This document shows positions 2,477-54,320 of a stretch of 64,000 bases of DNA, one piece after another. The position numbers and the translations under genes were made by a program. Origin of the DNA: Bacteroidota bacterium (GTDB lineage Bacteria > Bacteroidota > Bacteroidia > Cytophagales > UBA9547); contig JANRJY010000104.1 in assembly GCA_033763735.1 (NCBI GenBank), positions 7,738 to 71,737 of the forward strand, in the 5' to 3' direction. Every line of letters starts with the position of its first letter. Position 1 is the stretch's first letter. The notes beneath the pieces were generated by a model that did no database searches, was not told the DNA's origin, and saw nothing but the letters and a program-made list of their open reading frames with translations.

Positions 2477-3403
2477 TTATTTTTCGTAAGGATAGAAATC
2501 CAATAGACCATTTTTTGCAAGGAAGTTCATATAAGCACTTTTATACTCAACAACTCCTGGCTCTAATCTGATAGCTGATTCGAAAGCTTTTTTCGCATCA
2601 ACGAACAAGTTATTTTGAGCGTAGAAAGATGCTTTCATCATATAATTTAAAGCCGACTCTTCGTTAAATTCTTTAGCAAACATTGCTTTATCAGAGAAAA
2701 CATCAGGATTTTTTGATTCAATCATTCTTTTGATCACATAGCTGTCTGATTTTAAATCTGCATTAGATTTTACACGTACCATAAGAGTATTATCTTTTGG
2801 CATTTTAATACTATTGAAATCAATTGTGAATGTTGTATCAGTAGTTTCTTTTGAAAGAATTACATCGTCAAACATATTTAATACTTCAACAGTATATCCG
2901 GTAGCTTTAGGATTTTTAGCCCATGAAACCACATTGATGTCTTCAATAACAGAAGAGGTTTTAGGCAAACAAAGTGTAATAGAAGCCGTAGATATTGCTC
3001 TTTCTACCGAACCCGTTACTTTCATGTTTTTCTGATAGTTGGCGTGAATGTCACCACTCTCAGATTTAGTCATTTCTCCAATTACATATTCAGAGTATTT
3101 TTTAGTAATATTACTGTTTTTGGCAACAGCTTTTGCTACTAAATCAGCTACTTTGTAAGTACCTGCTTCTTTAATCTCAACAGTTTTACCTGTAGTATGA
3201 ATTAAACCAAGGTAACTTGCATCACCTACTTTAATTACATCTTTGTCGTTCAATTTTTTACCTGCAATAAGGGCAGTTCCATCTCCAAGTGTGTTTTTAC
3301 CTCTAGAGGCTAATACTTTGAAGGCTTCAGTTTGTGCAAAACTATAGAAGGAAAACGTAAGTCCTGCTATTGTTAAAAGAGTAGATTTGATAATAGTTTT
3401 CAT
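2477..3403 (-). CDS. Secreted FecR-like domain protein with a C-terminal TPR-like region
   Basis: I trimmed the ORF to the internal ATG at 3403, which gives the clean signal peptide MKTIIKSTLLTIAGLTFSFYSFAQ; the track start at 3448 is TTG. A FecR-like stretch is present: LASRGKNTLGDGTALIAGKKLNDKDVIKVGDASYLGLIHTTGKTVEIKEAGTYKV. The C-terminus has TPR-like helices (ALNYMMKASFYAQNNLFVDAKKAFESAIRLEP). Confidence 0.5.
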   Translation of the reverse strand: MKTIIKSTLLTIAGLTFSFYSFAQTEAFKVLASRGKNTLGDGTALIAGKKLNDKDVIKVGDASYLGLIHTTGKTVEIKEAGTYKVADLVAKAVAKNSNITKKYSEYVIGEMTKSESGDIHANYQKNMKVTGSVERAISTASITLCLPKTSSVIEDINVVSWAKNPKATGYTVEVLNMFDDVILSKETTDTTFTIDFNSIKMPKDNTLMVRVKSNADLKSDSYVIKRMIESKNPDVFSDKAMFAKEFNEESALNYMMKASFYAQNNLFVDAKKAFESAIRLEPGVVEYKSAYMNFLAKNGLLDFYPYEK

Positions 3404-6147: not shown

Positions 6148-6231
6148 GTAAAAATATAAAATTTAATCGTTTTGATATTCTTGCATAAATTTGAACGCAT
6201 AAAAATAGCAATAGTTTTAAAATATTTGATA

Positions 6232-9759: not shown

Positions 9760-12700
9760 TTGAAAAGATTACTACTAATTTTATTTCTTACCATTAATTC
9801 TTTATTTGCTGCAAATCGGTTTTACGTCAGAAATGGCTCTGGTTGTGGTGGCACATTCAACACAACTAGCTGTTGGTCTGCCACTTCGGGTGGTGCATCC
9901 GGAGCCAGTGTACCTACCGCTGCTGATGATGCAATTTTTGATGCCAATTCATTCACAGCCGGAGGAACAATTACCCTTGATGCAAATATGAGTTTCAATA
10001 CACTCGATTTTTTTAATATCAATCAAAACATTACCGTTGCTAATGGAGGAAATAATACCATTACAATTGACAATGTAGTATCAGGATACAGTTTGAGATG
10101 GGCTTCTACTGCAAGTCGTATTTCTACTTTAAATGCCAATTTAACTTTCAATGATGATGCGGTTAACTTTGTTTTTAGCACCCCTGGTACCGGCACGGTA
10201 ACGGTATATGGCCGATTGCAAACAGGGGCATCTTCAGCAGCTACAGGTAACTTTAGTGTAACCGGCTTGTCTGATAAGCAATTTTTTTGGAATGATTGGA
10301 CTACTTCTGAAATTCATTCAGCAATAGCTGTTTTTCAGGGAGTTACCACTTTTGGTGGTAACGCAACAAATACCTGTTGTACTCTTACAAACTTTCATGA
10401 AAATGTTGATTTTTTGAATGATGCTGTTATCAGCGGGTATATCAGTCAATTTTGTACTGATGATGTCAGTGGAACAAATGCACGTTTTTTTGGGAAAACT
10501 ACCTTAAATGAGTGGGTAAGGTTTCATGAACCAGTAAAGTTTTACGGAGCAACCACGGTTACCGGAAGATTCGAACATTGGAGTTCTCCTACCAATAAAA
10601 AAATGTACGTGGCACCAGGCGCGTCACTACTATTTAATGGCCCTCGTAATGGTATCCTTTGGGAGTGTGGAATAAATGCGAATGGTCCGGTTACTATTGC
10701 CCGTTCAAATACAGGCAATGCATATGTAGGATTCTTAGCAAGATATTCAGGCACGTACCCAGATACATTTAACTTTGTAGGAAATGCCATTGATTTTGGT
10801 GATTATATTTCTGATAATGATAATAATCAAGGAGTTGCTATCTATGCTAACCCTGTATACATGACTACAGGCAGTACAATGATTTTAGGTGCCTTTACAT
10901 ATCTTCGATTTGATGGGACTTATGATGCGGATGGTCCAAATACAGGGGCTTGTACAGGTTGCTACACCTATCCTTGGACTTGCCCGGGTACTGGTTACAA
11001 TCGCTCTACTTTCGGCAATTTTCATATGAGACCTTTTGCATATGTACATTTCAATGATGGAAATGCCGTTTGGACTTTTAATACATTTTCAATTACTGGA
11101 AATAACATGGTAGAGTTAGGCTCACAATCCACATGCCAAATGGGAGAAGCGAGTTATCAAATCAAAAATTTAGTATCCTCTGCCACTGCATGTGCAGGAT
11201 ACAATACGATTCGTAATAAAGTACCGGGAATAGGAAATTATTCAAGTACAGGGCCCAGAGGAGGAAATAACGCATTAGTGTCTATTTCAGGTTCAACTAC
11301 TTTAACCGGTACAATTCTTCAGGATATTGTAAATGCAAGCAATAATTCTTTGGTTGGCATAACAGCAACAATAGATTTGGGTGGTAACAGACCCGCATGG
11401 ATAACCAAAAATGGTAATGATTGGAACGGAAGTTCATTTCCACTGAGGAATTCCGGCAATTTTTCTTTCACTGGTGTATCCACTTCTGAAACCTTTTATT
11501 GGATTGGAAAATCCAATGCTAATAACAACTGGAGTAATCCATCCAATTGGTCTTTAAGTTCCGGAGGTCCTCCCAATGCAGGGGGATGTATTCCCTCGAC
11601 AAGGACTAATGTTATTTTTGATGGAAATTCTTATTCAGCAAATACCCAACGAACGGTATTGGATGGGGCTTATCAGTACTGCAAGCAAATGACATGGAAC
11701 CTTCCAGCCTCTGCTTCAGGGGTAATGATGTTTGGAACCATTTCCGGCTCAAAACTTCAAATATGGGATGATCTTAAGTTTAGTCAATATATGATAAATA
11801 GTTTCCTGGGAACCGTAGAATTCAATTCTGAAACTACAACCTCCGGATATACTTTAAATACAATTAACAGTACTACTCTTGATACTTATAATTACAAAGG
11901 TCCGGTTTATTTTAAAAATGCTACTACTCAATGGCAACTTACAAGCGATTTAAAAGCAGCATCAAGCTTTAACATAGTTGCCTCTAAAGTAGATGTTTCA
12001 AATAATGGTACTTCTTCAGGTACCTTTGCTAATATTACTGTTTTGGGAAATTGGTATTTGGAAGGTGCTCAATTTAGCGCTAGAACCGGAACCGTACATT
12101 TTAAAGGAACAAGTACTCAAAGTGTACAAGTATGGGGAAATGATACTTACATGCAAGATGCTTTTTATAATGTCATATTTGAAAATCCTTCAAATTTTAA
12201 CTTAGATAGTTACGATAGCAAAGTTTTTATTGCTCCCGGGGGTAGTGCAAAGTTTGTTAATGGAATAGTTCGAACTAAAACAGATAATGATAGTTATCAT
12301 GGGTTAATATTTATGAAAGGTTCAAAAGCGCTCAATTATCTGGGTCAAGATCTTGCAACTTCAAATTATTATTTGCTTACATCTCCCGGAGGTCCAAATA
12401 ACGCATGGGTGACAGGTGAAGTAGTGAAATGGGGTACTGAAGATTTTGTATTCCCTGTAGGTTCTGATGCATCTTGGTATTTTGGGCATACAGCCACACA
12501 ATACCGACCAATAGCATTAACATCGCTTACCGGCGTATCCGGATTCAATAGTACCAATATCTATAATTCAAGTTATTATATGGGCTCAGGAGGTTGGGCA
12601 ACTACTAATTTTGTTTCTCCTCTTAGTATTGTTGGTGTAAACGAATATTGGAAACTAGGACGAGTAGATATGGGTTGGAATCCAATTAGAGGTAGATGTG

Positions 12701-13794
12701 CCCAACGTGCATCAAATCAAGTTACAATTATTGTTTCCCAACGTAATGTTATTAACGGTGTGGTTACTACTGACGGATTGTATTTAAATCCTTTCAGCGT
12801 TGGTGATATGGTTTATATTAATAACTTTAGTGATATATTATCGGGTGCTGCAAATGGAAATTATTCAGTTGTCGGTGTTAATGGCAACTTTTTGACGGTA
12901 AGTTATCCCGGAGGAAATATTGGAATGTCGTGTAACACCGGGTCAAATACTGAAATCACATTGGTGTACGCTTCTACTCAAAATGTAAGTATTAAACTAC
13001 CATGGAGAGATGGAACTACTGATGCAACACCAAACTTTATAAATAACACTAATGATTACTTGAACTTAAAGTTAGGTATGCGGCTTGATGGTGGTGCAAA
13101 TGACGGTAATTTCGCAGATGCCACCCGGTCAATAATTGGTCCATCAAATTCAAATGCATCAGGAATATTATTAAGTAAAAGTTTTAGCACTTCAACGCTT
13201 ACTGGAGGGTTAAAATCTCGGTTTTTCAACTTTGGTGGCGCCATAACGGTAACTCCATTACCTGTTTTAAATATAATAAACTTTGATGCAATCGTTTACA
13301 ATAAATCAGTAGAGCTTACCTGGAGCTTAAAACATACTAAAAATGATGTAGCATATATAATTCAAAGAAGTAGTGATGCCAGTAATTTTACCGATTTAAT
13401 ATCTGAAAATTCTTCTAAATCAAAAACCGTTTTTTCAAGAACAGATGATGTGCCATTAAAAGGCATTTCGTATTATCGTTTAAAAATTGTGAAAGACAAT
13501 GGAAACCATGAATATAGTGAAATTAAGACTGTTAATTTTGATTCTGAAAGTAATATTTCTCTTTATCCGAATCCAATAGCCAAAGGTACTTTTTTATCAA
13601 TTTACAAAACAAATGATACTCCTACGGAAGGGTTCAAGTTTACTTTAATGGATTTGACAGGCAAAAATATTCTTTCAGGTTGGGTTCAAAATGAAAACAG
13701 TATTCTTATTCCGCAGTATTTGAGTGATGGGGTTTATTTCTTGAAAATAGATGACTCCATTTCATCACTTACCGAACGACTAATAGTTCGATGA
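9760..13794 (+). CDS. Large secreted T9SS cargo protein (beta-helix/adhesin-like, Fn3-like module, C-terminal sorting domain)
   Basis: TTG start directly gives the signal peptide MKRLLLILFLTINSLFA. A W-x-S-G-G-x(n)-P-x(n)-D-x-x-I-F-D-x-N-S motif occurs twice, near aa 39 and aa 590. An Fn3-like segment is present (VELTWSLKHTKNDVAYIIQRS...YYRLKIV). The C-terminus is a T9SS CTD (ISLYPNPIAKGTFLSI...DGVYFLKI...). Confidence 0.8.
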   Translation: MKRLLLILFLTINSLFAANRFYVRNGSGCGGTFNTTSCWSATSGGASGASVPTAADDAIFDANSFTAGGTITLDANMSFNTLDFFNINQNITVANGGNNTITIDNVVSGYSLRWASTASRISTLNANLTFNDDAVNFVFSTPGTGTVTVYGRLQTGASSAATGNFSVTGLSDKQFFWNDWTTSEIHSAIAVFQGVTTFGGNATNTCCTLTNFHENVDFLNDAVISGYISQFCTDDVSGTNARFFGKTTLNEWVRFHEPVKFYGATTVTGRFEHWSSPTNKKMYVAPGASLLFNGPRNGILWECGINANGPVTIARSNTGNAYVGFLARYSGTYPDTFNFVGNAIDFGDYISDNDNNQGVAIYANPVYMTTGSTMILGAFTYLRFDGTYDADGPNTGACTGCYTYPWTCPGTGYNRSTFGNFHMRPFAYVHFNDGNAVWTFNTFSITGNNMVELGSQSTCQMGEASYQIKNLVSSATACAGYNTIRNKVPGIGNYSSTGPRGGNNALVSISGSTTLTGTILQDIVNASNNSLVGITATIDLGGNRPAWITKNGNDWNGSSFPLRNSGNFSFTGVSTSETFYWIGKSNANNNWSNPSNWSLSSGGPPNAGGCIPSTRTNVIFDGNSYSANTQRTVLDGAYQYCKQMTWNLPASASGVMMFGTISGSKLQIWDDLKFSQYMINSFLGTVEFNSETTTSGYTLNTINSTTLDTYNYKGPVYFKNATTQWQLTSDLKAASSFNIVASKVDVSNNGTSSGTFANITVLGNWYLEGAQFSARTGTVHFKGTSTQSVQVWGNDTYMQDAFYNVIFENPSNFNLDSYDSKVFIAPGGSAKFVNGIVRTKTDNDSYHGLIFMKGSKALNYLGQDLATSNYYLLTSPGGPNNAWVTGEVVKWGTEDFVFPVGSDASWYFGHTATQYRPIALTSLTGVSGFNSTNIYNSSYYMGSGGWATTNFVSPLSIVGVNEYWKLGRVDMGWNPIRGRCAQRASNQVTIIVSQRNVINGVVTTDGLYLNPFSVGDMVYINNFSDILSGAANGNYSVVGVNGNFLTVSYPGGNIGMSCNTGSNTEITLVYASTQNVSIKLPWRDGTTDATPNFINNTNDYLNLKLGMRLDGGANDGNFADATRSIIGPSNSNASGILLSKSFSTSTLTGGLKSRFFNFGGAITVTPLPVLNIINFDAIVYNKSVELTWSLKHTKNDVAYIIQRSSDASNFTDLISENSSKSKTVFSRTDDVPLKGISYYRLKIVKDNGNHEYSEIKTVNFDSESNISLYPNPIAKGTFLSIYKTNDTPTEGFKFTLMDLTGKNILSGWVQNENSILIPQYLSDGVYFLKIDDSISSLTERLIVR

Positions 13795-20778: not shown

Positions 20779-21203
20779 AAAAATTAAGAGATAGAAATTT
20801 GGGGTTTGATGTATGTATTCGTAAAAATTGTAATAAATGTTACATAAAAAAGATAAAAAAGATAACGGAGAAATAATTTATCATTAATAATGTCTGTAAT
20901 ATGATTTGTAGCTTAATATAATTCAGTAAATGATAAATTCATTACGGAAAAGTAACATGAAATTTCTTAAATCTATCTAATTATTAACCTGTAAACCAAT
21001 TAAAAATCCCGAATTAATTATTTTATATTTAAATGACAACCTAAAATTATATGGCTATAGCTTTAAAAATCAAGCATATTTTAACTAAATTTTTAAAATT
21101 AAAATAATATTATTTTTTCATTGAATAATACCATTTTTTATTTATATTAGATAAACAAATAAGCTTTCAAATTATAAAATATTACGCTTAAATAACTAAT
21201 AAA

Positions 21204-24200
21204 ATGAAAAATATTACCCTAAAAATCTGCCTTCTTTTTATTACAATTTGCTCTATTGTAATAACGTATGGACAAAATGGTTATTTCCAAGATTTCAACA
21301 CAGGAGGCGTACCTTCCGGATTTAGTTGGGAATCTTCATATACGGTTTCCGTTCAGAACCAAGCATTGGAGATCAATGTTAACAAAGCAGATCTATTTCA
21401 CGGAGTTGCTGTTAATTTTCCTACTGCATTGGATTTATCAGCAACAAATAGAAGAAAAGTGAGCTTCCGAATCAAAACAGATACCACAACAAGAAAACTG
21501 CCTTATGAAATAGGTCTTTCAGTGTTCAATGCAGGTACTACAAACAACTCAGGAGGTAGAAGAACATTCAAAGTCATATATCCGACCGGCAAATGGCAAA
21601 CTGTTTCTTTTGACTTCAATGATGCTTCATTTTCAGCAAACTTTAGTGCCATTACACAGCTGAATTTCACATTTCAGCCGGTTGGTTACATGGAAGGTAA
21701 TGTAAAGGTACAAATAGATGATTTAGCAGTTGGTAACAATGGAACACCCGGGCAAGCTGCAATAGCAGCACCTTATTTTTTAGGAATTCCCAACCAAGAA
21801 ATACCTATAAATAGTTCATTTACCTATAAAATACGAAATATTGTAGATGCAGATAATTTAAACAGTAATGTCACTTTTGCAGCTGTAAGTTCTAATACGG
21901 CTATATTGCCTAATCCTACATTTACTCCAAATCCATTTTTAAGTAATAATTATTTCACATTCACTTCCGGCAATGGAAGTTCTGGTGATTTAATAACAAA
22001 TCGTGTTTTAAATATGGTTATGACTCCGAATGCAAATCAGTTTGGAATGGTAACTGTTACAGTGACTGCTACAGCTGCAAGCCAAATTGCCGGTATCACA
22101 TCAGTACCTTATAGATATATATTCAGCGTAGATGTAAAAAGAAATGTTGCTCCTACTATAGGTACAATTCCAACTTCACTAACAATTGGCTCAGACAGGA
22201 CTACCACAATCGATTTAGATAATATATTTTCCGGAAATGGAGAATCAGCTCAAATAATGACAATTAGTGGCTTAAGTTCGGATCAATCCATATTACAGAA
22301 CTCACAAATAGTTGCCTCTTATATTGGAATTTCAATGTCCGGAAAAATCTCCATTACACCTATACAGTTTGCAAGTCCTGCTTCCAAAATATTTAACCTT
22401 ACAGTCAATATAAAAGACAACGGTGGAATAGTAGCTGGAGGTAGCGATCAAACAAATTATATAATCCCTGTTACTATTTTACCTACCTATTACAATGCTC
22501 CCACGATACCTATTATACCTGATCAGGTAGATAATATTATAACCCAAGGACCTCGTACAATTAGAATTGAACCCATTACTGACGGCAACGGAGGTTCTAG
22601 AATATCTTCTGTAACAGCTGTGAGTGGCAATACAGGGATATTAGCTAACCCAACTGTATCATATACCCCAGGCAACAACTTTGCATTATTGACATACAAT
22701 TCATTAGTAGTAGGTACTACCAATATATCCATAACTGCCACAAATTTTGGTGCTCCGGCAAATAGCAATGGCAATTCTTCATTCACACGTGCTTTCGTAA
22801 TGACCGCATTAAATCCACCTCAAGCTGGTTATATAGAACCTATGACTGTGAGAACAATAGTAGGACCAAATGATGCAGATGGAAGATTTTCAACAGTTGC
22901 TGGAACTTGGTATGTTGAGCATCAAGGTTCACAACAAACGGTTACCATAAATACTACTACCGGAGTTTTTACAAATGTAATGACGAAAGCAGGAACAGCT
23001 CCATTATACTTTGCAGGTGTTTGGTATAAACCTTACGGAGGTGGCCAATTATTTGACTTTGCTACTTATCCATATTTAAGCGTTAATTTAAGTACTACTA
23101 ATACAGCTGGTGCAGTTGCTATAGATTTGTGGGATGTTAATGGAAATAGATATGGATTAACTTCTTCCATTGCAATTTCAGGTACGCCAACTGTATACAC
23201 ATTCTGTTATACTGGTACTCCGGATCCGGGATTTGATTTTTCAAAAGTAAAAACGATTCTTTTTAATTTTGGGGTAACACCTTTTAATACAGGTGCAGGA
23301 AGTTGGGCGCCTTATAACGGTACTTATACAATGAGAGATTTGCGTATTGGAAGCAGTGCATTAGGAAGTGGTAGTTGTACTCTACCTATACCTAATGTAG
23401 TTATTGGTGAAGCTCCAAATCCATATCACTTAACCGTTCAAACAGGCACAAAAACAGTAACAATAAGTGGAATAAATGCCGGTTCAACTCCTATTACCGG
23501 TCAAAACAACAACCCAGTAAGTTTATCAGTAAATGGTTCATTTTCACCTAGCATTCAATCATTTAACACTGCTACTGGAATTGCAGTAATACAATACACA
23601 ACTGGAGGAGCGGCCACTGGCACAATTAATGTAGTTGGTAACGCAACAGGCTCAAACCAAACAACACGTTCGTTTACAGTAACCGTGCAAGCAGCTCCGG
23701 CTTCTCAAAATGTAGTTGTAACCAACGACTTGAATGCAAATTTTGGCGATGGAAATAAAGGACAAACTATAGATGGTAGTCCATTTGGTGTATGTGAAAT
23801 ATGGGGTCCAAGTGGTGGTTCTGGTTTACCGGATTCATATTATGATATGCTAAAAGAAGCCAATGTGCAATCCATGCGTGTGGGTATTTGGGATTTTGAA
23901 CCTAAAAATGACAATAATAATCCTTTTGTATTAGACAAAACCAAGTTGGATTATACAGCTATGGGTGTAGAATTTTTCAAAAAAGCAAGAGCTGCTGGTG
24001 TAGAAAGATTTATGGTTACTTTCTTTTCTCCTCCAAGTTTTGTGAAATACAATAATTCTTATGGCGTTCCTAATTCTCCTTTTACACAGTCACCAGGATT
24101 TGTAGTCACAAATACTGTCGATTCCTCTTATTACGAAGAATATGCAGAATATGCAGTTGCTTTTGTACAAGGAATAAAAGAAAAATCAGGTGTTGATATT

Positions 24201-27200
24201 TATGGTTTGAGTCTTGGAAATGAAATCCAATTTAACCAGACGTATCAATCAGTGGTTTATACAACTGCCCAATATGTTGAAATCGTAAGAAGAGTAGGCA
24301 GAAGATTAGCCGCTGCGGGACTTAAAACATTTATTTGGGGGGCAGAAACACTTCAAGGACAAGATTCAGGTAATAATTATTTAAAAGCTGTTCAGAATGA
24401 TCCTGAAACTAGAAATTATTTTAGTGGCTATGCGATTCATGCGTATGCCGCGAATGGTGTGGGTCAAGCAGCACCAAGTTGGGGTTCAGTGGTTACTGAT
24501 TCCAGAAATTCCCTTTCTAACGGAGGATTAACATTGTTGCGTCAAAGTCCAATAGCCACAGTAGGTCCGGGTGGGGAACAGCATAATGGAAATGGTGGAA
24601 TTGGTATTCCTATTTATCAATCTGAGACTTCACAAGGTGGTTTAACAGAAGCTCAATATAAAAGCTGGGACAATGCTATGGGTATATTTGCAGGGGTGTC
24701 TACTTCTTTAAATGTAGGTAAAAATTCAGGTTGGTATTACATTGGAATTAATAAAGATGCAAAAATGTATTACACATATAAACACTTAGACAAATTTGTA
24801 TTTGGTGGTGCAAGAGCTATTCCGGTAACTCAACCTAGTGGAACAAATGTGTCGGCAGTTCGAAATCCTGATGGTTCGGTATGTGTGATGCTTGCCAACG
24901 ACAATACGGCAATGCGAACTTTTTCTTTTGGAGGTACCAACATGCCAAGTGTCAATAGAGCATTTCTTTCAGTTGATAATTTATTTTGGAAAGACTTGGG
25001 TACAATTACAGGAAGCATCAGTGTTCCACCTAATTCCCTACTTACTTTATGGGGTGGTGGTAATGCCTTGGTCGCTGCAAGTGGCATAACTGTTTCAGGG
25101 GCTACAACAACTAATGTAGCAGGTGGATCGATCCAATTTACTGAAACTGTATTACCTGCAAATCTTGTTGACAAGTCGGTAACTTGGTCAGTTATAACCT
25201 TAACAGGGAATGCTACAATCAATCAATCAGGATTAATGACGGCAGTTTCAAATGGTACTGTGAGGGTAAGAGCAACCTCTGTAGCTACTCCAACTGTTTT
25301 TGGTGAAATAGTTGTAACCCTCTCAGGACAATATGTAAAAGTAACTGCGATATCTGTAGATGGAGTAGGTGGCGTTAGAAATGTGGCAACAGCATCTACT
25401 TTACAAATGACTGTTACTGGTGTATTACCAACTGCCGCACCATTAAGGGAAGCAAGTTGGTCATTAAACCCTTCTTCAGGAATTGCTTCAATTAATGCTA
25501 CTGGTTTATTGACAGGTATTTCTTCAGGAGTAGTAACTGTAATAGGTACTTCATTGGACAATAATACTGTAACAAGTAGGGTTGTAGTAACTGTAACCAG
25601 TTCAAGTGTTGCAATAACTTCTGCTACTGTCACCGGAGGATCGAACCAAATTACAACAGCTGGAGGCACTTTGGCTATGACATCAACATATAGTCCTGCC
25701 AACGCAACTAGTACTACTGTTGGTTGGTCAATATCAGGCTCAATAGCAAGTATTAATCCTACAACTGGTTTAGTCACAGCACTAAATAACGGAAACGGTG
25801 TGGTTACTGTGACTTCGACTTATGTTTCATGGGGAATTACTGCCTCAAGAGTTATCACTATAAGTGGGCAAACATCTTTAATTACTTCTGCTACAATAAA
25901 TGGAGTAGGTGGAGTTTCTGTAATAAATACGGCAAACGGAACCTTACAAATGACTGTTACCGGATATTTACCAACCGATGCTACTAATACAACTCCAACA
26001 TGGAGCATTTTAGCTCCTTCTTTAGGCAATTCAATAAATGCTTCAGGATTATTATCAGCAACTACCAATAGTAATGGTGTGGTAACTGTTCAGGCTGCCT
26101 TTGGTGCAGTAACTGCCACTAGAGTAATAACCATTTCTAATCAAAATGTGCCGGTCACGGCAGCCACAATAAACGGAGTGGGTGGTGTAACGACTATAAA
26201 TGTAGCCAATGGTACCTTACAAATGACTACAACCGGATTAGCTCCTTTGGGAGCCAATCAAAATACAACTCCAACCTGGAGTATTTTGGCACCCGCTTTT
26301 GGAAACTCCATCAATGCTTCCGGATTACTATCTGCTACCACTAATAGTAATGGTGTGGTAACTGTACAAGCTGCTTTTGGTGCAGTAACTGCCACTAGAG
26401 TAATCACCATTTCTAATCAAAATGTGCCGGTTACCGCAGCCACAATAAACGGAGTAGGTGGTGTATCGACTATAAATGTAGCCAATGGGACCTTGCAAAT
26501 GACCACAACCGGACTAGCCCCCTTGGGAGCCAATCAAAATACAACTCCTACCTGGAGTATTTTGGCACCGGCTTTAGGAAACTCAATAAATGCATCAGGA
26601 TTACTTTCTGCTACTACCAATAGCAATGGTGTAGTAACCGTTCAAGCTGCCTTTGGTGCAGTAACTGCCACTAGAGTAATAACCATTTCTAATCAAAATG
26701 TACCTGTAACAGCGGCAACAATTAATGGTGTTGGAGGCGTTTCGGTAATTACTTCAAATTTAGGTACCTTACAATTAACAACTACTGGATTAGCACCATT
26801 AGGAGCTAATCAAAATACAACTCCTACTTGGACTTTAATAGGAGGAACAGCCGCTTCATTGAATGCAGCTACTGGCGTATTAACTGCAATAAACAATGGC
26901 GTAGTGACCGTTCAAGGGGCATTCGGATCAGTTATTGCTACTAGAGTAATTACTGTTAGCAATCAATTAACAGGAATTTCTATCACAGCCGCTAATTCTA
27001 TTATTGGAGTTGATTTGGGAACGAAACAAATGATTTTGACTTATGTTCCTGCAACTGCAAGTGCTTTAGGAGTCAATTGGTCAACTAACAATGCAAATGC
27101 ATCAGTTAATTCATCCGGATTAGTTTCAGCTTTGCTAAATGGGCTTGTAACAGTAACAGCTACTTCCATTCAAAACAATGCATTTACCTCAAGTTACGTT

Positions 27201-30200
27201 ATAACAATTACAAATCAGGCAGCTTCTTTTGTACCTGTAACTTCTGTTGTATTATCAGGAACTGCATCTATAATTTCAACTGGAAGTACAACCATAACTG
27301 GTACCGTATTACCTGCAAATGCCACAAACCCTGCTTTAAGTTGGTCATTAGTTCCTCCTACCGGAGTAGCTAATATTGGTGCTTCAACTTCGAATAATGC
27401 GGTTTTAAATGGTATAGGCAACGGGGTTGTTACTTTAATTGGGACTTCAGTAAGTAATGGTTCTGTTTTTGGAATTAGAATTATTACGGTTAGTGGATTT
27501 GCGATACCAGTTACATCAACAACAGTCAACGGTGCTGGAGGCATTAATCAAATTACCGCTTCCAATGGTACGTTACAAATGTTAGCTCCTTATTCACCAT
27601 CCAATGCGAATGCAAATACTGTATTAGGTTGGACATTAATTGACCCAACCGGCAAAAACAGCATCAATGCAACTTCCGGATTATTGCAAGCCAATACCGA
27701 TGGAAATGGATTAGTAACCGTTACAGGTGCATATGGGGCTGTAACATCAAGAAGAGTTGTAACCATTTCAGGTCAAGGAATCACTGCAACGAGTATGACA
27801 ATTAATGGTTCAAACATTACTACTCAAAGTGGAACTACCGCTATGACTGTTGTGTTTAATCCATCAAACGCAAATGTGGGCACATCTGTAGGCTGGACAT
27901 CGTCAAATGCTTCAATTGCCAGTGTAAATGCCTCAACTGGTATTGTTTCTGCTGTTACAAATGGTATTGTAACAATTACAGGAACCGCTGGTTCATTAAC
28001 TTCTACTAAAATATTGACAATATCTGGTCAATTTGTTGGTATCCCTGTTACTTCAACTACTGTAAACGGCACCGGGGGCGTAAATCAAATAACTGTCGCA
28101 AATGGAACGCTACAAATGTTAGCTCCTTATTCTCCGGTAAATGCGAATCAAAACACCTTGTTGGGATGGTCAATAATTGACCCAACCGGCAAAAACAGTA
28201 TCAATGCAACTACCGGTCTATTGCAAGCCAATACTGATGGTAATGGATTGGTCACCATTACAGGTGCATATGGTGCTGTAACATCAAGAAGAGTTGTTAC
28301 CATTTCAGGTCAAGGAATTACTGCTACCAGTATCACAATAAATGGAGCAAACATTTCTGTGCTGAATGGAACTTCCCAAATGACAGCATCTTTTGGTCCT
28401 GTAGGAGCAAATGTAGGGACAACAGTAATTTGGTCATCAAATCCTTCAGGAAGGATAAATGGCACTGGATTAGTATCAGCAAATGGCCTAAACGAAATAG
28501 TTACGATTACGGGAACTGCAGGGTCATTAACTGCCATAAAATTGATAACAATCACTGGACAACAAATTCAGGTTACATCAATCTCTATTTCAGGTTCAAA
28601 TACAATTAATACACCTGGGGGAGCTGTGTTCTTAAATAGTTCGGTTTTACCGTTGAATGCAACAAATACTAATATTAGTTGGTCAATTATTACCGTATCA
28701 GGTGGTGGATTAGCAACTATAAATAATTCGGGAACTGTAGTTGCTCAACGTAATGGAAACGGGATAGTAACTGTAGTTGGTACTGCATTAGATGGTTCAG
28801 GTGTTGTAACGTATTTTCCAATTACAATTTCAGGACAAGCCAATGATTTGATTTCGCTTTCGGTTTTTGGACAAGGTGGCAATGAAATAACTGCTAATGG
28901 GGCAAGTAAATTAATGCAAGTAACTCCTTTCCCTTCAAATGCCAATGGTTCTGTTACGTGGAGTATTATAACAACTCCTGGACAAGGAAAAGCAACAATA
29001 GATAATACCGGATTGGTAACTGCTTTGGTTAATGGAAATGGAACGGTTACAGTTGTTGGAACATCTGTTGAAAACAGTTCGATAAGTGCTTTTGCAGTTT
29101 TAACAATAAGTGGTCAATTAATTCCAATTACATCTATCACATTATCAGCAGCCAGTGGGAATGCTGCAATTACAGTTGATGATGCAATTCTGCAAATAAA
29201 CTATGCTTTATCTCCTGCAAATACCACACAAAATAACATTCTCTATTCAATTACTGGCCAAAACAACTTTGGAATACCTAATCCATCAGGAGCTGAATTA
29301 GCCATTATTAGAGGCAATGGTGTTCTTGAATCTCTATGGAATGGAATCGTTACAATAGTTGGTTATTCGAGTCAAAATCCAACGGTTAGAGATATAATTG
29401 TTGTTACTATTTCTAATCAATACATCAACGTAACTTCTATTTCAGGAATAGCTCCAAAATGGACTATTCCACAAGTATTAAATGGAAATAAAGCAGGTGT
29501 TACTGTAACAGGCTGGGCTGCTTACCCAACTTTTGCTTCAAATACGACATTAGAGTATGAAGCAATTTCTGGAGCAAAATATGTTACTATTGTTGGAAAT
29601 GCAATCAATACCCTTGACAATGGAGATGGAATTGCTTTTGTCAGAGTTAGATCTGTTTCTGATACAGCGATTAAATATATTTTAACAATTTCTGCTATAA
29701 ATCAATCAAATGCTTTGTCTATTGTTGTATCTGATGACAATACCACTTATGCTTCAGGAAGTGAATTACAAGTTGGTGCTTTTTACCTGGTTTCAGGTGA
29801 ATTATCACCAAATGCACTCTCGTTAGATGAAATGAAGAAAAGAATGACTTATCAATTCTTACCTCAAAGTGCTGTTATTCAAAGTGCTGATGGTTCATTT
29901 CAAATTGTTGGTGGAACTTCTGTGACAATTATTGGTACATATTTGAACAATCCATCCTTGACAAATACACAAGTTTTCTCTATTGCAAACACGAATTCAA
30001 CTGTTGGCACTAATATAACTATGAGTGTTTTTGATAACACAAAAACATATCCAACAAAAAGTACATTAAAAAGTGGATCATACTATACTGTTGCTGGTGT
30101 TTTAACTCCGGATATTTATAGTGTAATTGAAATGCAATCAAAAATGGTGTATCAGTTTTATCCACAAAATGCAGTTTCGCAAAGTCAAAATGGAGCATTT

Positions 30201-30584
30201 CAAGTAATTGGTGGTTCATCTGTTACAATTATTGGTACATTCTTGAATAATCAAAACCTGAAGGATACTTTAGAATTTTCGATTACCTCAAATGTAAATT
30301 CGCTTCCTGGAGTTTCAACTGCACTAGGATTAAGTGGTTTTAATACGAATGATATTTCCATTTACCCAAATCCTACCAATGGTGCAATTAATGTTATAAA
30401 TAATACCTCCAATAGTCAATTCGTGGTTAAAATTCACAACTTAAATGGTACTGTCGTATTTGAAACTGTAATTCAAAATTCAGGAAATAATTTATTAGAT
30501 ATTAAAGATTTACAATCAGGTATCTATTTTATGGAATTAATAACTGAAAAAGGAGTCATACTCAAACAATTGATCAAACAGTAA
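21204..30584 (+). CDS. Giant (3126 aa) T9SS-secreted multidomain protein: CBM-like modules, Ig-like repeats, GH30-like catalytic core, about 20 Big_2 domains, C-terminal sorting domain
   Basis: Signal peptide MKNITLKICLLFITICSIVITYGQ. The central region resembles a clan GH-A hydrolase. Many Big_2-type units follow (pattern xxLQMTxTxxPxNAxxxxVxWSxxxxxxAxINxxGLxTAxxxGxVTVxAT). The CTD is ISIYPNPTNGAINV...SGIYFMELI (30354-30581). Confidence 0.9.
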   Translation: MKNITLKICLLFITICSIVITYGQNGYFQDFNTGGVPSGFSWESSYTVSVQNQALEINVNKADLFHGVAVNFPTALDLSATNRRKVSFRIKTDTTTRKLPYEIGLSVFNAGTTNNSGGRRTFKVIYPTGKWQTVSFDFNDASFSANFSAITQLNFTFQPVGYMEGNVKVQIDDLAVGNNGTPGQAAIAAPYFLGIPNQEIPINSSFTYKIRNIVDADNLNSNVTFAAVSSNTAILPNPTFTPNPFLSNNYFTFTSGNGSSGDLITNRVLNMVMTPNANQFGMVTVTVTATAASQIAGITSVPYRYIFSVDVKRNVAPTIGTIPTSLTIGSDRTTTIDLDNIFSGNGESAQIMTISGLSSDQSILQNSQIVASYIGISMSGKISITPIQFASPASKIFNLTVNIKDNGGIVAGGSDQTNYIIPVTILPTYYNAPTIPIIPDQVDNIITQGPRTIRIEPITDGNGGSRISSVTAVSGNTGILANPTVSYTPGNNFALLTYNSLVVGTTNISITATNFGAPANSNGNSSFTRAFVMTALNPPQAGYIEPMTVRTIVGPNDADGRFSTVAGTWYVEHQGSQQTVTINTTTGVFTNVMTKAGTAPLYFAGVWYKPYGGGQLFDFATYPYLSVNLSTTNTAGAVAIDLWDVNGNRYGLTSSIAISGTPTVYTFCYTGTPDPGFDFSKVKTILFNFGVTPFNTGAGSWAPYNGTYTMRDLRIGSSALGSGSCTLPIPNVVIGEAPNPYHLTVQTGTKTVTISGINAGSTPITGQNNNPVSLSVNGSFSPSIQSFNTATGIAVIQYTTGGAATGTINVVGNATGSNQTTRSFTVTVQAAPASQNVVVTNDLNANFGDGNKGQTIDGSPFGVCEIWGPSGGSGLPDSYYDMLKEANVQSMRVGIWDFEPKNDNNNPFVLDKTKLDYTAMGVEFFKKARAAGVERFMVTFFSPPSFVKYNNSYGVPNSPFTQSPGFVVTNTVDSSYYEEYAEYAVAFVQGIKEKSGVDIYGLSLGNEIQFNQTYQSVVYTTAQYVEIVRRVGRRLAAAGLKTFIWGAETLQGQDSGNNYLKAVQNDPETRNYFSGYAIHAYAANGVGQAAPSWGSVVTDSRNSLSNGGLTLLRQSPIATVGPGGEQHNGNGGIGIPIYQSETSQGGLTEAQYKSWDNAMGIFAGVSTSLNVGKNSGWYYIGINKDAKMYYTYKHLDKFVFGGARAIPVTQPSGTNVSAVRNPDGSVCVMLANDNTAMRTFSFGGTNMPSVNRAFLSVDNLFWKDLGTITGSISVPPNSLLTLWGGGNALVAASGITVSGATTTNVAGGSIQFTETVLPANLVDKSVTWSVITLTGNATINQSGLMTAVSNGTVRVRATSVATPTVFGEIVVTLSGQYVKVTAISVDGVGGVRNVATASTLQMTVTGVLPTAAPLREASWSLNPSSGIASINATGLLTGISSGVVTVIGTSLDNNTVTSRVVVTVTSSSVAITSATVTGGSNQITTAGGTLAMTSTYSPANATSTTVGWSISGSIASINPTTGLVTALNNGNGVVTVTSTYVSWGITASRVITISGQTSLITSATINGVGGVSVINTANGTLQMTVTGYLPTDATNTTPTWSILAPSLGNSINASGLLSATTNSNGVVTVQAAFGAVTATRVITISNQNVPVTAATINGVGGVTTINVANGTLQMTTTGLAPLGANQNTTPTWSILAPAFGNSINASGLLSATTNSNGVVTVQAAFGAVTATRVITISNQNVPVTAATINGVGGVSTINVANGTLQMTTTGLAPLGANQNTTPTWSILAPALGNSINASGLLSATTNSNGVVTVQAAFGAVTATRVITISNQNVPVTAATINGVGGVSVITSNLGTLQLTTTGLAPLGANQNTTPTWTLIGGTAASLNAATGVLTAINNGVVTVQGAFGSVIATRVITVSNQLTGISITAANSIIGVDLGTKQMILTYVPATASALGVNWSTNNANASVNSSGLVSALLNGLVTVTATSIQNNAFTSSYVITITNQAASFVPVTSVVLSGTASIISTGSTTITGTVLPANATNPALSWSLVPPTGVANIGASTSNNAVLNGIGNGVVTLIGTSVSNGSVFGIRIITVSGFAIPVTSTTVNGAGGINQITASNGTLQMLAPYSPSNANANTVLGWTLIDPTGKNSINATSGLLQANTDGNGLVTVTGAYGAVTSRRVVTISGQGITATSMTINGSNITTQSGTTAMTVVFNPSNANVGTSVGWTSSNASIASVNASTGIVSAVTNGIVTITGTAGSLTSTKILTISGQFVGIPVTSTTVNGTGGVNQITVANGTLQMLAPYSPVNANQNTLLGWSIIDPTGKNSINATTGLLQANTDGNGLVTITGAYGAVTSRRVVTISGQGITATSITINGANISVLNGTSQMTASFGPVGANVGTTVIWSSNPSGRINGTGLVSANGLNEIVTITGTAGSLTAIKLITITGQQIQVTSISISGSNTINTPGGAVFLNSSVLPLNATNTNISWSIITVSGGGLATINNSGTVVAQRNGNGIVTVVGTALDGSGVVTYFPITISGQANDLISLSVFGQGGNEITANGASKLMQVTPFPSNANGSVTWSIITTPGQGKATIDNTGLVTALVNGNGTVTVVGTSVENSSISAFAVLTISGQLIPITSITLSAASGNAAITVDDAILQINYALSPANTTQNNILYSITGQNNFGIPNPSGAELAIIRGNGVLESLWNGIVTIVGYSSQNPTVRDIIVVTISNQYINVTSISGIAPKWTIPQVLNGNKAGVTVTGWAAYPTFASNTTLEYEAISGAKYVTIVGNAINTLDNGDGIAFVRVRSVSDTAIKYILTISAINQSNALSIVVSDDNTTYASGSELQVGAFYLVSGELSPNALSLDEMKKRMTYQFLPQSAVIQSADGSFQIVGGTSVTIIGTYLNNPSLTNTQVFSIANTNSTVGTNITMSVFDNTKTYPTKSTLKSGSYYTVAGVLTPDIYSVIEMQSKMVYQFYPQNAVSQSQNGAFQVIGGSSVTIIGTFLNNQNLKDTLEFSITSNVNSLPGVSTALGLSGFNTNDISIYPNPTNGAINVINNTSNSQFVVKIHNLNGTVVFETVIQNSGNNLLDIKDLQSGIYFMELITEKGVILKQLIKQ
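23711..25060 (+). other. GH30-like (clan GH-A, COG5520-type O-glycosyl hydrolase) catalytic region inside the giant protein
   Basis: FFSPPSFVKY resembles the GH30 SPWSPP-x-WMK segment. YGLSLGNEIQF is a candidate acid/base Glu in an NE(P)-like motif. GYAIHAYA is present. IPIYQSETSQGG is a candidate nucleophile Glu. Boundaries are approximate. Confidence 0.55.
25842..26936 (+). repeat. Four in-frame tandem copies (273, 276, 276 and 270 nt) of one Big_2 unit
   Basis: The string CCACTAGAGTAAT recurs at 26116, 26392 and 26668, an exact 276-nt period. The central copies encode ATRVITISNQNVPVTAATINGVGGV(T/S)TINVANGTLQMTTTGLAPLGANQNTTPTWSILAPA(F/L)GNSINASGLLSATTNSNGVVTVQAAFGAVT. Confidence 0.95.
27507..28562 (+). 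repeat. Tandem duplication of a two-Big_2 unit (537-nt offset)
   Basis: PVTSTTVNGAGGINQITASNGTLQMLAPYSP... at 27507 is repeated as PVTSTTVNGTGGVNQITVANGTLQMLAPYSP... at 28044. Colinearity continues through ...GAVTSRRVVTISGQGITATS(M/I)TING... and ends at ...TITGTAGSLT. Confidence 0.9.
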
Positions 30585-30602
30585 ACTTATATTTTAAATT
30601 CT

Positions 30603-30636
30603 AAAAGGGTGTCTGCTTCAGATACCCTTTTTTTTT
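30603..30636 (+). terminator. Rho-independent terminator after the giant gene
   Basis: Stem GGGTGTCTG / CAGATACCC (9 bp, one G-U pair) with a short loop, followed by a 9-T run. It starts 19 nt after the stop. Confidence 0.75.
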
Positions 30637-30714
30637 GTCCTTTCAAAAACACGTTACTAAGTTTTGATACCCATCAAATATTGGTATAATTGCAGCCCAT
30701 TTAAAATATCAATT

Positions 30715-32958
30715 ATGAAAAGAAAGTTTATTACCCTTTTTGTTTGTTTTGCAATCAGCACGATAATAGGCTATTCGCAATCCACATCAGTAAGAAATAT
30801 AGATCAAAAAGCAGATTCTGTTTTAAAATTAATGACGTTAGACGAAAAAATTGGCCAACTCAATCAATTATCAATTGAATTTGCTACAGGTGGTGATCAG
30901 GTAAAATCCAATCTTTCACTTGAAGAGCAAGTGAAAAAAGGTATGATTGGTTCTTTTTTGAATACTCAAAATATGGACTACAAAATTAAACTGCAAAAAA
31001 TTGCAATAACACAGTCACGTATGAAAATCCCTTTAATTTTTGCACTAGATGTTATTCATGGATATAAAGTGGTTTTCCCAATACCGTTGGCTGAAGCTTG
31101 TTCATGGGATTTGGCTGAGATTGAAAATGCAGAACGTGTTGCAGCAGAAATGGCTTCTGCTCACGGCATACACTGGACATTTGCTCCAATGATGGACGTA
31201 GGCCGCGATCCAAGATGGGGTCGTGTTATGGAGGGTGCAGGTGAGGACACTTGGTTAGGTGCAAAAATAGCAGCAGCACGTGTAAGGGGTTTTCAAGGAG
31301 AAGATTTGAGTAAACCAAATACCATCTTGGCTTGTGCCAAACATTTTGCTGCTTATGGATTTAGCGAATCAGGCAGAGAATATAATACTGTTGAAATGAG
31401 TGAACGTCAATTAAGAGAATTTGTGCTCCCACCTTTCAAAGCAGCTTCAGATGCCGGAATAGGTACATTTATGAATTCCTTTAATACTATTTCCGCAGTT
31501 CCTGCCTCAGGAAATAAAAGATTAGTTAAAGATATTCTAAAAGATGAATGGGGATTTAAAGGATTTGTTGTTTCTGATTGGGAATCCATTTCTGAAATGA
31601 TCAATCATGGAGTTGCGGCCGACTCTATGCAAGCCGCAGCTTTAGCTATGAATAACCAATCTTCAGACATGGATATGGTTAGTCAAGTTTATATTAAATC
31701 ATTAAAAAAATTGGTTACTCAAGGCAAAGTTAAAGAAGGCCATATAAATGACGCATGCAAACGAATACTTAAAATAAAATTTGCACTTGGACTATTTGAC
31801 GATCCCTTGAGATATTTTGACCAAAAAAGAAAAGAAGCTTCTTTAAAAAACCCTGCATACTTAGAAGCTAGTAGGAACATGGCTAAAAAATCAATGGTGC
31901 TACTCAAAAATGATGGAAATGTATTGCCATTAAAGAAAGATATCAAATCCGTTGCTATCATTGGTCCATTTGCAGATGGCAAAAGAGATAGAGATTATAT
32001 GAGTTTCTGGACATTTGGTGCGGAACAAAAAGATGTTGTTACGCTCTATCAAGGAATTAAAAACAAATTAGGGACTAACTCAAATATAATTGTTGATTCT
32101 GCATGTGGCTGGATGGGTAATTGTTCGCCCGAAGGTATTAAAAGAGCGGTAGATCAAGCCTCAAAAGCAGATTATATTATATTGGCATTAGGTGAAAATG
32201 GCGAAAGAAATGGCGAATGCCGTTCAAGGACCAACATTGATTTGCCCGGCAATCAAAAAGAACTTATTAAAGAAATACTAAAACTTAATAAGCCAACAGT
32301 TGCTGTACTTTTTAATGGTCGTCCTTTAACATTAGAATGGGAATCGAAAAACATTCCAGCTATACTTGAAGCTTGGCAACCGGGTTCTCAAGCTGGTAAT
32401 GCAGTAGCCGATGTACTCTTTGGCGATTACAATCCTTCCGGCAAATTGACCATGTCTTTTCCTATGAATGTGGGTCAAATTCCGGTTTATTATAATCAAT
32501 TACCGACCGGTCGACCGGCTACAAAACCAATGGATATGTGGAAATCAAGTTATTCGGATGCTCCAAACGAACCTTTGTACCCATTTGGATATGGATTGAG
32601 TTACACCAATTTTAACTACTCCCAAGTTACATTAAATAAAAAAGAAATAACCAATAATGAAACTTTAGAAGCTACTATAACTATTTCTAATACAGGGAAG
32701 TATGATGGTGAAGAGACCGTACAATTGTACATCAGAGATCTCACGGCTGATGTATCGCGCCCGGTAAAAGAACTAAGAGGATTTCAAAAAGTTATGATTA
32801 AAAAAGGCGAAAGCAAACAAATTACTTTCAAGTTAACGATTGAAGATTTGAAATACTGGAATGCTGATTTAGTTTACAAAGCAGACCCCGGAAAGTTCAA
32901 ATTGATGATTGGACCAAGCTCCAAAACAAATCAAGAAATTGAATTTGAACTGAAATAA
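30715..32958 (+). CDS. bglX: Periplasmic/secreted GH3 beta-glucosidase
   Basis: GH3 motifs are present: KIGQLNQ, IHGYKVVFPIPLA, DPRWGRVMEGAGED, and GFKGFVVSDW with the nucleophile Asp. A C-terminal Fn3-like domain is present. I moved the start to the ATG at 30715, giving the signal peptide MKRKFITLFVCFAISTIIGYSQ. Confidence 0.9.
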   Translation: MKRKFITLFVCFAISTIIGYSQSTSVRNIDQKADSVLKLMTLDEKIGQLNQLSIEFATGGDQVKSNLSLEEQVKKGMIGSFLNTQNMDYKIKLQKIAITQSRMKIPLIFALDVIHGYKVVFPIPLAEACSWDLAEIENAERVAAEMASAHGIHWTFAPMMDVGRDPRWGRVMEGAGEDTWLGAKIAAARVRGFQGEDLSKPNTILACAKHFAAYGFSESGREYNTVEMSERQLREFVLPPFKAASDAGIGTFMNSFNTISAVPASGNKRLVKDILKDEWGFKGFVVSDWESISEMINHGVAADSMQAAALAMNNQSSDMDMVSQVYIKSLKKLVTQGKVKEGHINDACKRILKIKFALGLFDDPLRYFDQKRKEASLKNPAYLEASRNMAKKSMVLLKNDGNVLPLKKDIKSVAIIGPFADGKRDRDYMSFWTFGAEQKDVVTLYQGIKNKLGTNSNIIVDSACGWMGNCSPEGIKRAVDQASKADYIILALGENGERNGECRSRTNIDLPGNQKELIKEILKLNKPTVAVLFNGRPLTLEWESKNIPAILEAWQPGSQAGNAVADVLFGDYNPSGKLTMSFPMNVGQIPVYYNQLPTGRPATKPMDMWKSSYSDAPNEPLYPFGYGLSYTNFNYSQVTLNKKEITNNETLEATITISNTGKYDGEETVQLYIRDLTADVSRPVKELRGFQKVMIKKGESKQITFKLTIEDLKYWNADLVYKADPGKFKLMIGPSSKTNQEIEFELK

Positions 32959-54319: not shown

Positions 54320-54320
54320 A

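Follow-up and report, generated by a model that had tools for sequence, protein, structure and literature searches.

Organization of the giant gene

We analyzed a 64,000-nucleotide stretch of DNA, hereafter the window, from a Bacteroidota bacterium of the order Cytophagales (assembly GCA_033763735.1, contig JANRJY010000104.1, positions 7,738 to 71,737 of the forward strand). The gene under study, referred to as the giant gene, encodes a protein of 3126 aa that carries, in order, a signal peptide, carbohydrate-binding module family 4 (CBM4)-like and immunoglobulin (Ig)-like modules, a predicted catalytic region, Big_2 repeats, and the type A C-terminal sorting domain (CTD) of the type IX secretion system (hereafter T9SS). 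An earlier reading of the sequence, the original prediction, had described a catalytic core resembling glycoside hydrolase family 30 (GH30) in the middle of this open reading frame (ORF) and had quoted four motifs. The ORF and all four motifs were present as claimed, with FFSPPSFVKY located at aa 940, GLSLGNEIQF at aa 1001, AIHAYA at aa 1077, and IYQSETS at aa 1137. The features of the giant gene were as follows.

21204..30584 (+): giant ORF, 3126 aa, 9381 bp (ORF call)
21204..21272 (+): signal peptide (MKNITLKICLLFITICSIVITYG), read from the sequence
21273..21737 (+): D1, putative CBM4-like beta-jelly-roll, aa 24-178 (AlphaFold2 (AF2) model; profile match to 1gui)
21771..22811 (+): D2-D4, three Ig/cadherin-like beta-sandwich domains, aa ~190-536 (AF2 model)
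22821..23357 (+): D5, second putative CBM4-like jelly roll, aa 540-718, paralogous to D1 (hhalign; AF2 model)
23406..23693 (+): D6, Ig-like domain, aa ~735-830 (AF2 model)
23709..25073 (+): predicted divergent GH30 catalytic module, aa 836-1290, (beta/alpha)8 barrel with side beta-sandwich (Pfam; profiles against PDB; AF2; Foldseek)
24219..24224 (+): codons AAT GAA of N1006-E1007, NE motif at the end of beta-4, predicted acid/base (invariant in alignments A1 and A2, described below)
24477..24611 (+): clade-specific insertion of ~45 aa before beta-7, aa ~1092-1136, with conserved NGNGGxGIP (alignment gaps; low model confidence)
24624..24626 (+): codon GAG of E1141 on beta-7, predicted nucleophile (invariant in A1)
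25080..29432 (+): 16 tandem Big_2 Ig-like repeats, aa 1293-2743 (repeat hidden Markov model (HMM); each copy E 1e-22 to 1e-32)
29463..30305 (+): degenerate repeat, aa 2754-2838, and two divergent paralogous modules of ~76 aa, aa 2859-2934 and 2959-3034 (repeat HMM)
30360..30584 (+): T9SS type A CTD, aa 3053-3126, and stop codon (PF18962, E 1.1e-12; TIGR04183, 48.2 bits against a cut-off of 23)

A Pfam scan of the whole 3126-aa protein detected Big_2 and the T9SS sorting domain only. When seven sub-segments were scanned, no Pfam match was obtained for the N-terminal 835 residues or for the two divergent C-terminal modules. Public annotation describes giant-type proteins as "Ig-like domain-containing protein" or "YjdB", and only short relatives are labeled "O-glycosyl hydrolase".

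The central region resembles GH30 catalytic modules

When residues 836-1286 were scanned alone, the top matches were all three of the Pfam GH30 models. The model of the GH30 C-terminal sandwich, PF17189, passed its threshold (23.4 bits, cut-off 22), whereas the two barrel models stayed just below theirs (PF14587, 23.5 bits, cut-off 27; PF02055, 21.4 bits, cut-off 23). The best PDB match of the plain single sequence was 5ngk, with an E-value of 7e-9 over 115 residues that cover part of the barrel. Homologue searches that rely on a word index missed nearly all of this family, returning 1 match with the sequence and 10 with a profile, and an exhaustive search was required. An exhaustive HMMER search of 1.84 billion representatives recovered 879 relatives at E <= 1e-3, 397 of them at E <= 1e-10.

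Two profiles were compared with PDB, one built from an alignment of 34 homologues (A1) and one limited to the giant-protein clade (A2). A1 matched GH30 structures over the full length, namely 7n6h (GH30_10, 4e-71), 1nof (GH30_8, 4e-64), and 5ngk (1e-52), followed at a distance by human glucocerebrosidase (about 1e-23); no match of A1 in PDB fell outside GH30 structures. A2 returned the same list, with E-values from 8e-32 (7n6h) to 1e-7. With both profiles, the solved structures of GH30_10, _8, _7, and _3 scored within a narrow band, and because these scores lie so close together a subfamily assignment is not possible.

An AF2 model of the core based on A1 reached a predicted local distance difference test score (pLDDT) of 82 and a predicted template modeling score of 0.86. 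It contained eight barrel strands, with E182 (core numbering) just past beta-4 and E316 on beta-7, followed by a beta-sandwich. In the GH30 fold, a (beta/alpha)8 barrel is joined to a side beta-domain of nine strands (PMC11058611). A Foldseek search of PDB with the core model gave only GH30 structures among the top 50, with target-normalized template modeling (TM) scores of up to about 0.8 and sequence identities of 14-20%. The nearest solved structures were xylan-active GH30s, with a beta-1,6-glucanase close behind. A single strand (core residues 12-14) preceded barrel strand 1 in the model, where pLDDT was only about 55-65. In GH30 group 2, which comprises subfamilies 4-8 and 10-12, only one strand of the side domain precedes the barrel (PMC11058611); the modeled strand order fits this group, albeit with low local confidence.

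Nine columns were invariant among the 34 sequences of A1, namely K123, N181, E182, H254, Y256, E316, T317, W352, and N407. In the numbering of the giant protein, core residues N181/E182 are N1006/E1007 and core residue E316 is E1141, and E1007 and E1141 align with the NEP and TE (WMTE) motifs of 7n6h and 1nof. The two candidate catalytic Glu residues thus occupied the conserved positions on beta-4 and beta-7. Taken together, the Pfam ranking, the A1 and A2 profiles, and the Foldseek result bear out the originally proposed mid-chain GH30-like core, and we conclude from sequence and model comparison that the central region is a divergent GH30 module with an intact predicted catalytic pair.

Most homologues aligned around query residues ~270-325 as two stretches with a gap between them, which marks the clade-specific insertion before beta-7. 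Within the insertion, N305, G306, G309, and I310 were invariant in the giant clade. One paralogue of this clade, P0009 (2066 aa), had QTNHQ where all others had QTETS (A2 columns ~335-345); it had lost the predicted nucleophile but retained the NE motif and the whole architecture. P0009 may be a catalytically dead, lectin-like member.

Conservation of the giant gene and its layout

Orthologues were sought in one genome per species and were found on four contigs from three Cytophagales metagenome-assembled genomes (MAGs). Identity to the giant protein was 75% over aa 24-2749 for L002 (3130 aa), 63% for L003 (3138 aa), 48% for L004 (2927 aa), and 43% for L005 (3594 aa). All four were collinear with it over about 2750 residues, and each carried 16-22 Big_2-type repeats and a CTD-like tail. 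The giant gene is conserved in a low-GC Cytophagales-like clade.

The contigs of the closest orthologues, L001 and L002 (from MAGs named PH2015_*), stop inside the giant gene or right behind it. Assemblies seem to break often at the repeat array, and such genes are likely truncated or under-represented in MAG catalogues.

Of the 151 collected family proteins, 71 matched all or part of the N-terminal block of ~830 aa, and giants of ~2500 aa in other lineages carried the GH30-like domain even deeper in the chain. The mid-chain position of the GH30 domain is therefore a recurrent feature of the family and not a peculiarity of this gene. The original description of the layout as unusual was overstated on this account, and also in view of the T9SS multimodular glycanases outside polysaccharide utilization loci (PULs) that are already known (PMC5831590).

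N-terminal block, stalk, and export signals

The mature N-terminus, QNGYFQ(D/N)F, was common to the giant protein, L002, and L003. An AF2 model built on an alignment of 12 homologous N-termini resolved residues 1-835 into six beta-sandwich domains (pLDDT 81.5), and a Foldseek search with the whole six-domain model returned generic strings of cadherin and Ig domains only. The D1 profile (A4) matched 1gui, the CBM4 of Thermotoga maritima laminarinase 16A, with an E-value of 2.5e-5. The D5 profile (A5) had no match in PDB; D5 is tied to CBM4 only through D1, to which it was paralogous in a profile comparison (A4 against A5, hhalign, probability 99%, E 2e-18). A unit at aa ~420-530 recurred elsewhere in homologues. 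The modeled sandwiches, the match of D1 to 1gui, and the D1/D5 paralogy make the CBM-like and Ig-like modules announced ahead of the core a reasonable description, and D1 and D5 may be regarded as putative CBM4-like modules. Members of CBM4 bind several different glycans.

With an HMM built from the giant protein itself, 16 clear Big_2 copies and three divergent ones were recognized. The figure of about 20 given by the original prediction is slightly generous but fair (16-19), and the two paralogous modules that it had placed after the array were also found. The Pfam Big_2 model detected the giant protein with an E-value of 2.4e-23, although only six stretches passed. At the DNA level, three of the copies form a 276-bp tandem repeat (25986-26832; 3.1 copies, 85-88% matches). 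From the size of Ig-like domains, an extended stalk of 16-19 Big_2 domains would measure roughly 60-80 nm.

PF18962 and the NCBIfam model TIGR04183 agreed on the predicted CTD. The giant protein carries both marks of T9SS type A cargo, an N-terminal Sec signal peptide and a C-terminal type A sorting domain. Among the annotated genes of the window, none was recognized as part of the T9SS machinery; a T9SS in the source genome is nevertheless likely, because the window codes for at least three further proteins with a T9SS CTD. In Porphyromonas, type A CTD cargo is known to be anchored to the surface, and by analogy tethering of the giant protein to the cell surface on its stalk is plausible.

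Flanking regions and the neighboring GH3 gene

The giant gene is preceded by an AT-rich region and followed by a hairpin and a GH3 gene.

20779..21203 (no strand): AT-rich divergent intergenic region, 425 bp, 18.1% GC, presumed to contain the promoter
30603..30640 (+): intrinsic-terminator-like hairpin with a 13-bp stem (30603-30631) and a T run (sequence scan)
30715..32958 (+): GH3 BglX-type beta-glucosidase with signal peptide (Pfam GH3 N, GH3 C, and Fn3-like; real ATG at 30715)

The upstream region, originally described as very AT-rich, is the lowest-GC 425-bp stretch of the window (window mean 34.8%). No exact TAnnTTTG, the Bacteroidota -7 motif, occurred in 20779-21203. The corresponding regions of L002-L005 were likewise AT-rich (19-30% GC) and non-coding, with lengths of 209-1310 bp, and no sequence conservation was detected among these regions and that of the giant gene.

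The strong terminator and the signal-peptide GH3 with the GFVVSDW motif were both confirmed. The GH3 protein passed the NCBIfam BglX equivalog model with 770 bits (cut-off 666) and is a bona fide BglX-type enzyme by this measure. A tblastn search with the GH3 sequence found no GH3 relative in 80 family loci, and no giant homologue was found in 80 metagenomic loci of GH3 relatives. In L085, which encodes the closest GH3 relative (79% identity), the GH3 gene is preceded by a GH28-like gene and a tRNA synthetase gene. The giant genes of L003, L004, and L005 are flanked by genes unrelated to the window neighbors; orthologue flanks comprised an ornithine/arginine-decarboxylase-type gene, a lyase, a LytTR two-component system, a TonB receptor, cytochromes, and a SASA esterase. 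None of ten window neighbors sought in L001-L004, L081, and L085 was conserved. The functional pairing with GH3 that the original prediction had proposed found no support in these comparisons, given the intervening terminator, the absence of co-occurrence in either set of 80 loci, and the different context in L085. The GH3 gene is probably a chance neighbor that lies outside the system of the giant gene.

A set of TonB receptor, histidine kinase, and LytTR genes was considered as a link between the giant gene and GH3 and was rejected, being probably a common cluster in a different arrangement. In L004 (16387-20610), a TonB-dependent receptor of about 800 aa (CarboxypepD_reg and Plug), a His_kinase protein (PF06580), and a LytTR regulator are encoded beside the giant orthologue. 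In L085 (818-5836), a similar TonB receptor and a His_kinase protein (Pfam) lie upstream of the closest GH3 relative.

SusCD context and short relatives

In agreement with the original prediction, no SusC/SusD genes adjoin the giant gene. The immediate neighbors of the giant and GH3 genes encode a PAS histidine kinase, an SF1 helicase, and isocitrate dehydrogenase, and the only SusC/SusD pair in the window lies about 20 kb away (52895-57518) in an unrelated cyanophycin-type locus. No SusC-like match adjoined the giant orthologues either. Independence from SusCD holds for the giant clade; across the wider family, however, a SusC-like gene was present within 10 kb in about 27 of 80 loci.

The short homologues of Chitinophagales (553-574 aa; L013-L022) are encoded directly downstream of SusC and SusD. 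The same placement was seen in L028, L030, and L037, which derive from Chitinophagales/Sphingobacteriales MAGs, and genes of ~200 and ~390 aa often stand just upstream. Downstream, these loci encode unknown proteins of 850 aa together with a GH29 fucosidase, a GH78 rhamnosidase, and a GFO/IDH oxidoreductase. The fucosidase and the rhamnosidase hint at complex heteropolysaccharides as substrates of the short relatives. These PUL-encoded proteins share with the giant protein a homologous catalytic module (25-27% identity) and the same invariant residues; they differ in being single-module proteins encoded after SusC/SusD, with neither the N-terminal block nor the Big_2 stalk. At this level of identity, the hint as to their substrate is not transferable to the giant protein on sequence grounds.

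Proposed function and alternative explanations

We consider it likely that the giant protein is a stand-alone T9SS cargo in which a head of CBM4-like, Ig-like, and GH30 modules is carried on a Big_2 stalk, independently of GH3 and SusCD. Its stand-alone status is suggested because the neighboring genes differ in every orthologous locus. In this scheme, the signal peptide would direct the protein across the inner membrane and the type A CTD would direct it through the T9SS. After export, by analogy with other type A cargo, it would be attached to the surface at its C-terminus or released. The head would correspond to the N-terminal 1290 residues, with two CBM4-like jelly rolls, four Ig-like spacers, and the divergent GH30 module. 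By homology to clan GH-A and GH30, E1007 as acid/base and E1141 as nucleophile would cleave a beta-glycosidic bond by retaining double displacement. If the stalk is extended and anchored, its 16-19 Big_2 domains would keep the head at a distance of roughly 60-80 nm from the cell, where it would bind and cleave a beta-linked extracellular polysaccharide with neither an adjacent GH3 nor a SusCD pair.

A more far-reaching proposal, which we put forward only tentatively, is that the giant clade, perhaps together with the whole family of ~900 representatives, forms a new GH30 subfamily of unseen specificity, and that the giant protein is a long-reach, SusCD-independent surface glycanase on a stalk of ~70 nm. 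Divergent clades continue to prompt proposals of new GH30 subfamilies (PMC11058611). The GH29 and GH78 enzymes encoded beside the PUL-borne relatives hint at one candidate substrate, a microbial or cyanobacterial exopolysaccharide that contains fucose or rhamnose.

Several observations weigh against the interpretation as a stand-alone surface glycanase. The single giant sequence fell below the Pfam cut-offs for both GH30 barrel models, and the giant clade has no characterized member. At 14-20% identity to solved GH30s, neither specificity nor endo/exo mode can be transferred. The clade-specific loop of ~45 residues by beta-7 was poorly modeled (low pLDDT, core residues 287-306). Given the QTNHQ sequence of P0009, some members are probably non-enzymes, and the main role may be one of binding. 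That the giant protein is anchored at the surface is assumed by analogy with Porphyromonas type A cargo. Finally, because the contigs of L001 and L002 stop inside the giant gene or right behind it, the closest relatives give no information on adjacency to GH3.

The pathway originally envisaged, in which a surface-tethered endo-beta-glucanase (e.g., a beta-1,6-glucanase) would act with a periplasmic GH3 BglX that finishes gluco-oligosaccharides, appears unlikely. The two genes share a strand and are separated by 130 bp, the GH3 is a true BglX-type enzyme, D1 resembles the CBM4 of a laminarinase, and 5ngk was the best single-sequence match in PDB (E 7e-9). However, a terminator with a 13-bp stem separates the genes, and GH3 was absent from all 80 family loci, including those of L003, L004, and L005. 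The giant gene was in turn absent from the 80 GH3 loci, the 79%-identical GH3 of L085 lying in a different context. Moreover, xylan-active group-2 GH30s scored at least as well as 5ngk in profile and structure comparisons, and the ligands of CBM4 are varied. Somewhat more doubtful still is a protein that serves mainly as an adhesin, with CBM-like and GH30-fold lectins displayed on an Ig-like stalk and catalysis absent or secondary. Such a protein would mediate attachment of the cell to a polysaccharide-coated surface (algal or cyanobacterial sheaths, biofilm matrix) or play a role in gliding. About 85% of the giant protein consists of non-catalytic beta-sandwich domains, its public annotation is "Ig-like domain-containing protein" only, its gene lies outside any sugar-utilization locus, and the paralogue P0009 has kept the architecture without the nucleophile motif. 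Set against these points, the NE, E, and H-x-Y motifs were intact in the giant protein and its four nearest relatives, and the invariance of the catalytic residues in 34 family members argues for selection on catalysis. Given P0009, a lectin or adhesin role may still apply to part of the family.

An assembly artefact, in which repeats would have driven a mis-join of a glycosidase gene with an adhesin gene, is very improbable. The ORF does contain many Big_2 repeats, including the 276-bp tandem array of 3.1 copies, and the contigs of the closest relatives (L001, L002) break within or just after the giant gene. Nevertheless, a chimera of the two genes was rejected because four independently assembled orthologues on separate MAG contigs, alike in length, were collinear over ~2750 residues. 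The DNA repeats match at only 85-88% and are hence resolvable in assembly, and the 9.4-kb frame is open throughout, its domains following one another in an orderly series that starts with the signal peptide and closes with the CTD.

Comparison with known systems

The closest known counterparts of the catalytic module were the group-2 GH30s AcXbh30A (GH30_10, 7n6h), EcXynA (GH30_8, 1nof), and Xyn30A of a Clostridium species (GH30_8, 5cxp), which gave the best profile matches (4e-71 to 1e-55) and the best fold matches (target-normalized TM 0.77-0.81). In GH30_8 glucuronoxylanases, the glucuronate side chain is bound by a conserved Arg of the beta8-alpha8 loop. The likeness extends to the barrel with its packed side beta-sandwich, the acid/base motif (NEP) at beta-4, the nucleophile motif (TE) at beta-7, and possibly the single pre-barrel strand, which was modeled with low confidence. 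In contrast, the giant core is only 15-20% identical to these enzymes, has IQF after NE instead of the usual P-x-F, contains the ~45-aa insertion before beta-7, and has a deletion of the loop after beta-8. Its domain is embedded in a 3126-aa T9SS protein, whereas theirs belong to small secreted or cellulosomal enzymes.

5ngk, deposited as "glucosylceramidase", is likewise a Bacteroidota GH30 with a strong profile match (1e-52). We take it to be BT3312, the endo-beta-1,6-glucanase (GH30_3) of B. thetaiotaomicron, presumably a lipoprotein of some 500 aa whose gene lies in a SusCD PUL. The GH30_3 subfamily is part of group 1, in which three strands lie ahead of the barrel (PMC11058611).

T9SS-exported multimodular glycanases without PULs are described for Candidatus Paraporphyromonas polyenzymogenes and, as endoglucanases, for Cytophaga hutchinsonii (PMC5831590). 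These enzymes resemble the giant protein in combining a GH domain, CBMs, and a T9SS CTD and in being encoded outside SusCD loci; they differ in carrying GH5, GH9, GH10, and similar, recognizable domains and in being much shorter. They are not known to have a comparable Ig-like repeat array or conserved 830-aa N-terminal block. GH30 beta-1,6-glucanase modules also occur among multimodular enzymes that carry CBM92, and roughly half of these CBM92 enzymes are predicted to be T9SS cargo (PMC11039641).

The present results extend known themes, namely GH30 and T9SS multimodular carbohydrate-active enzymes (CAZymes), and do not introduce a new principle. What they add is a large GH30-like clade, unannotated and uncharacterized, whose head of ~1290 aa is conserved and sits, in this lineage, on a stalk of Ig-like domains that is unusually long. 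Because standard annotation missed the catalytic domain in a family of 879, CAZyme inventories of Cytophagales, Chitinophagales, and related MAGs would undercount glycanases. The ~1290-aa head is a defined, expressible target for a new GH30 specificity, and the head-on-stalk arrangement offers a testable case of how non-PUL Bacteroidota reach insoluble or distant substrates.

Other loci in the window

A cluster on the minus strand (37091-57518) is headed by the SusC/SusD pair (54321-57518 and 52895-54334). It encodes a 1437-aa T9SS protein and a 688-aa cyanophycinase-like protein with a T9SS CTD, then a canonical cyanophycinase (TIGR02069, 148 bits against a cut-off of 126.6) and a DcuC-type carrier, and further beta-aspartyl-peptidase-like and arginine dihydrolase-/deiminase-like genes, an aldehyde dehydrogenase, and a class-III aminotransferase. 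The cluster looks like a SusCD-linked cyanophycin utilization locus with a secreted cyanophycinase. On the plus strand, a large T9SS CTD protein of 1344 aa (9760-13794), in which no other domain was recognizable, is encoded beside a DUF4953/DUF5117 Met-zincin (6172-8799). The window as a whole was rich in T9SS cargo.

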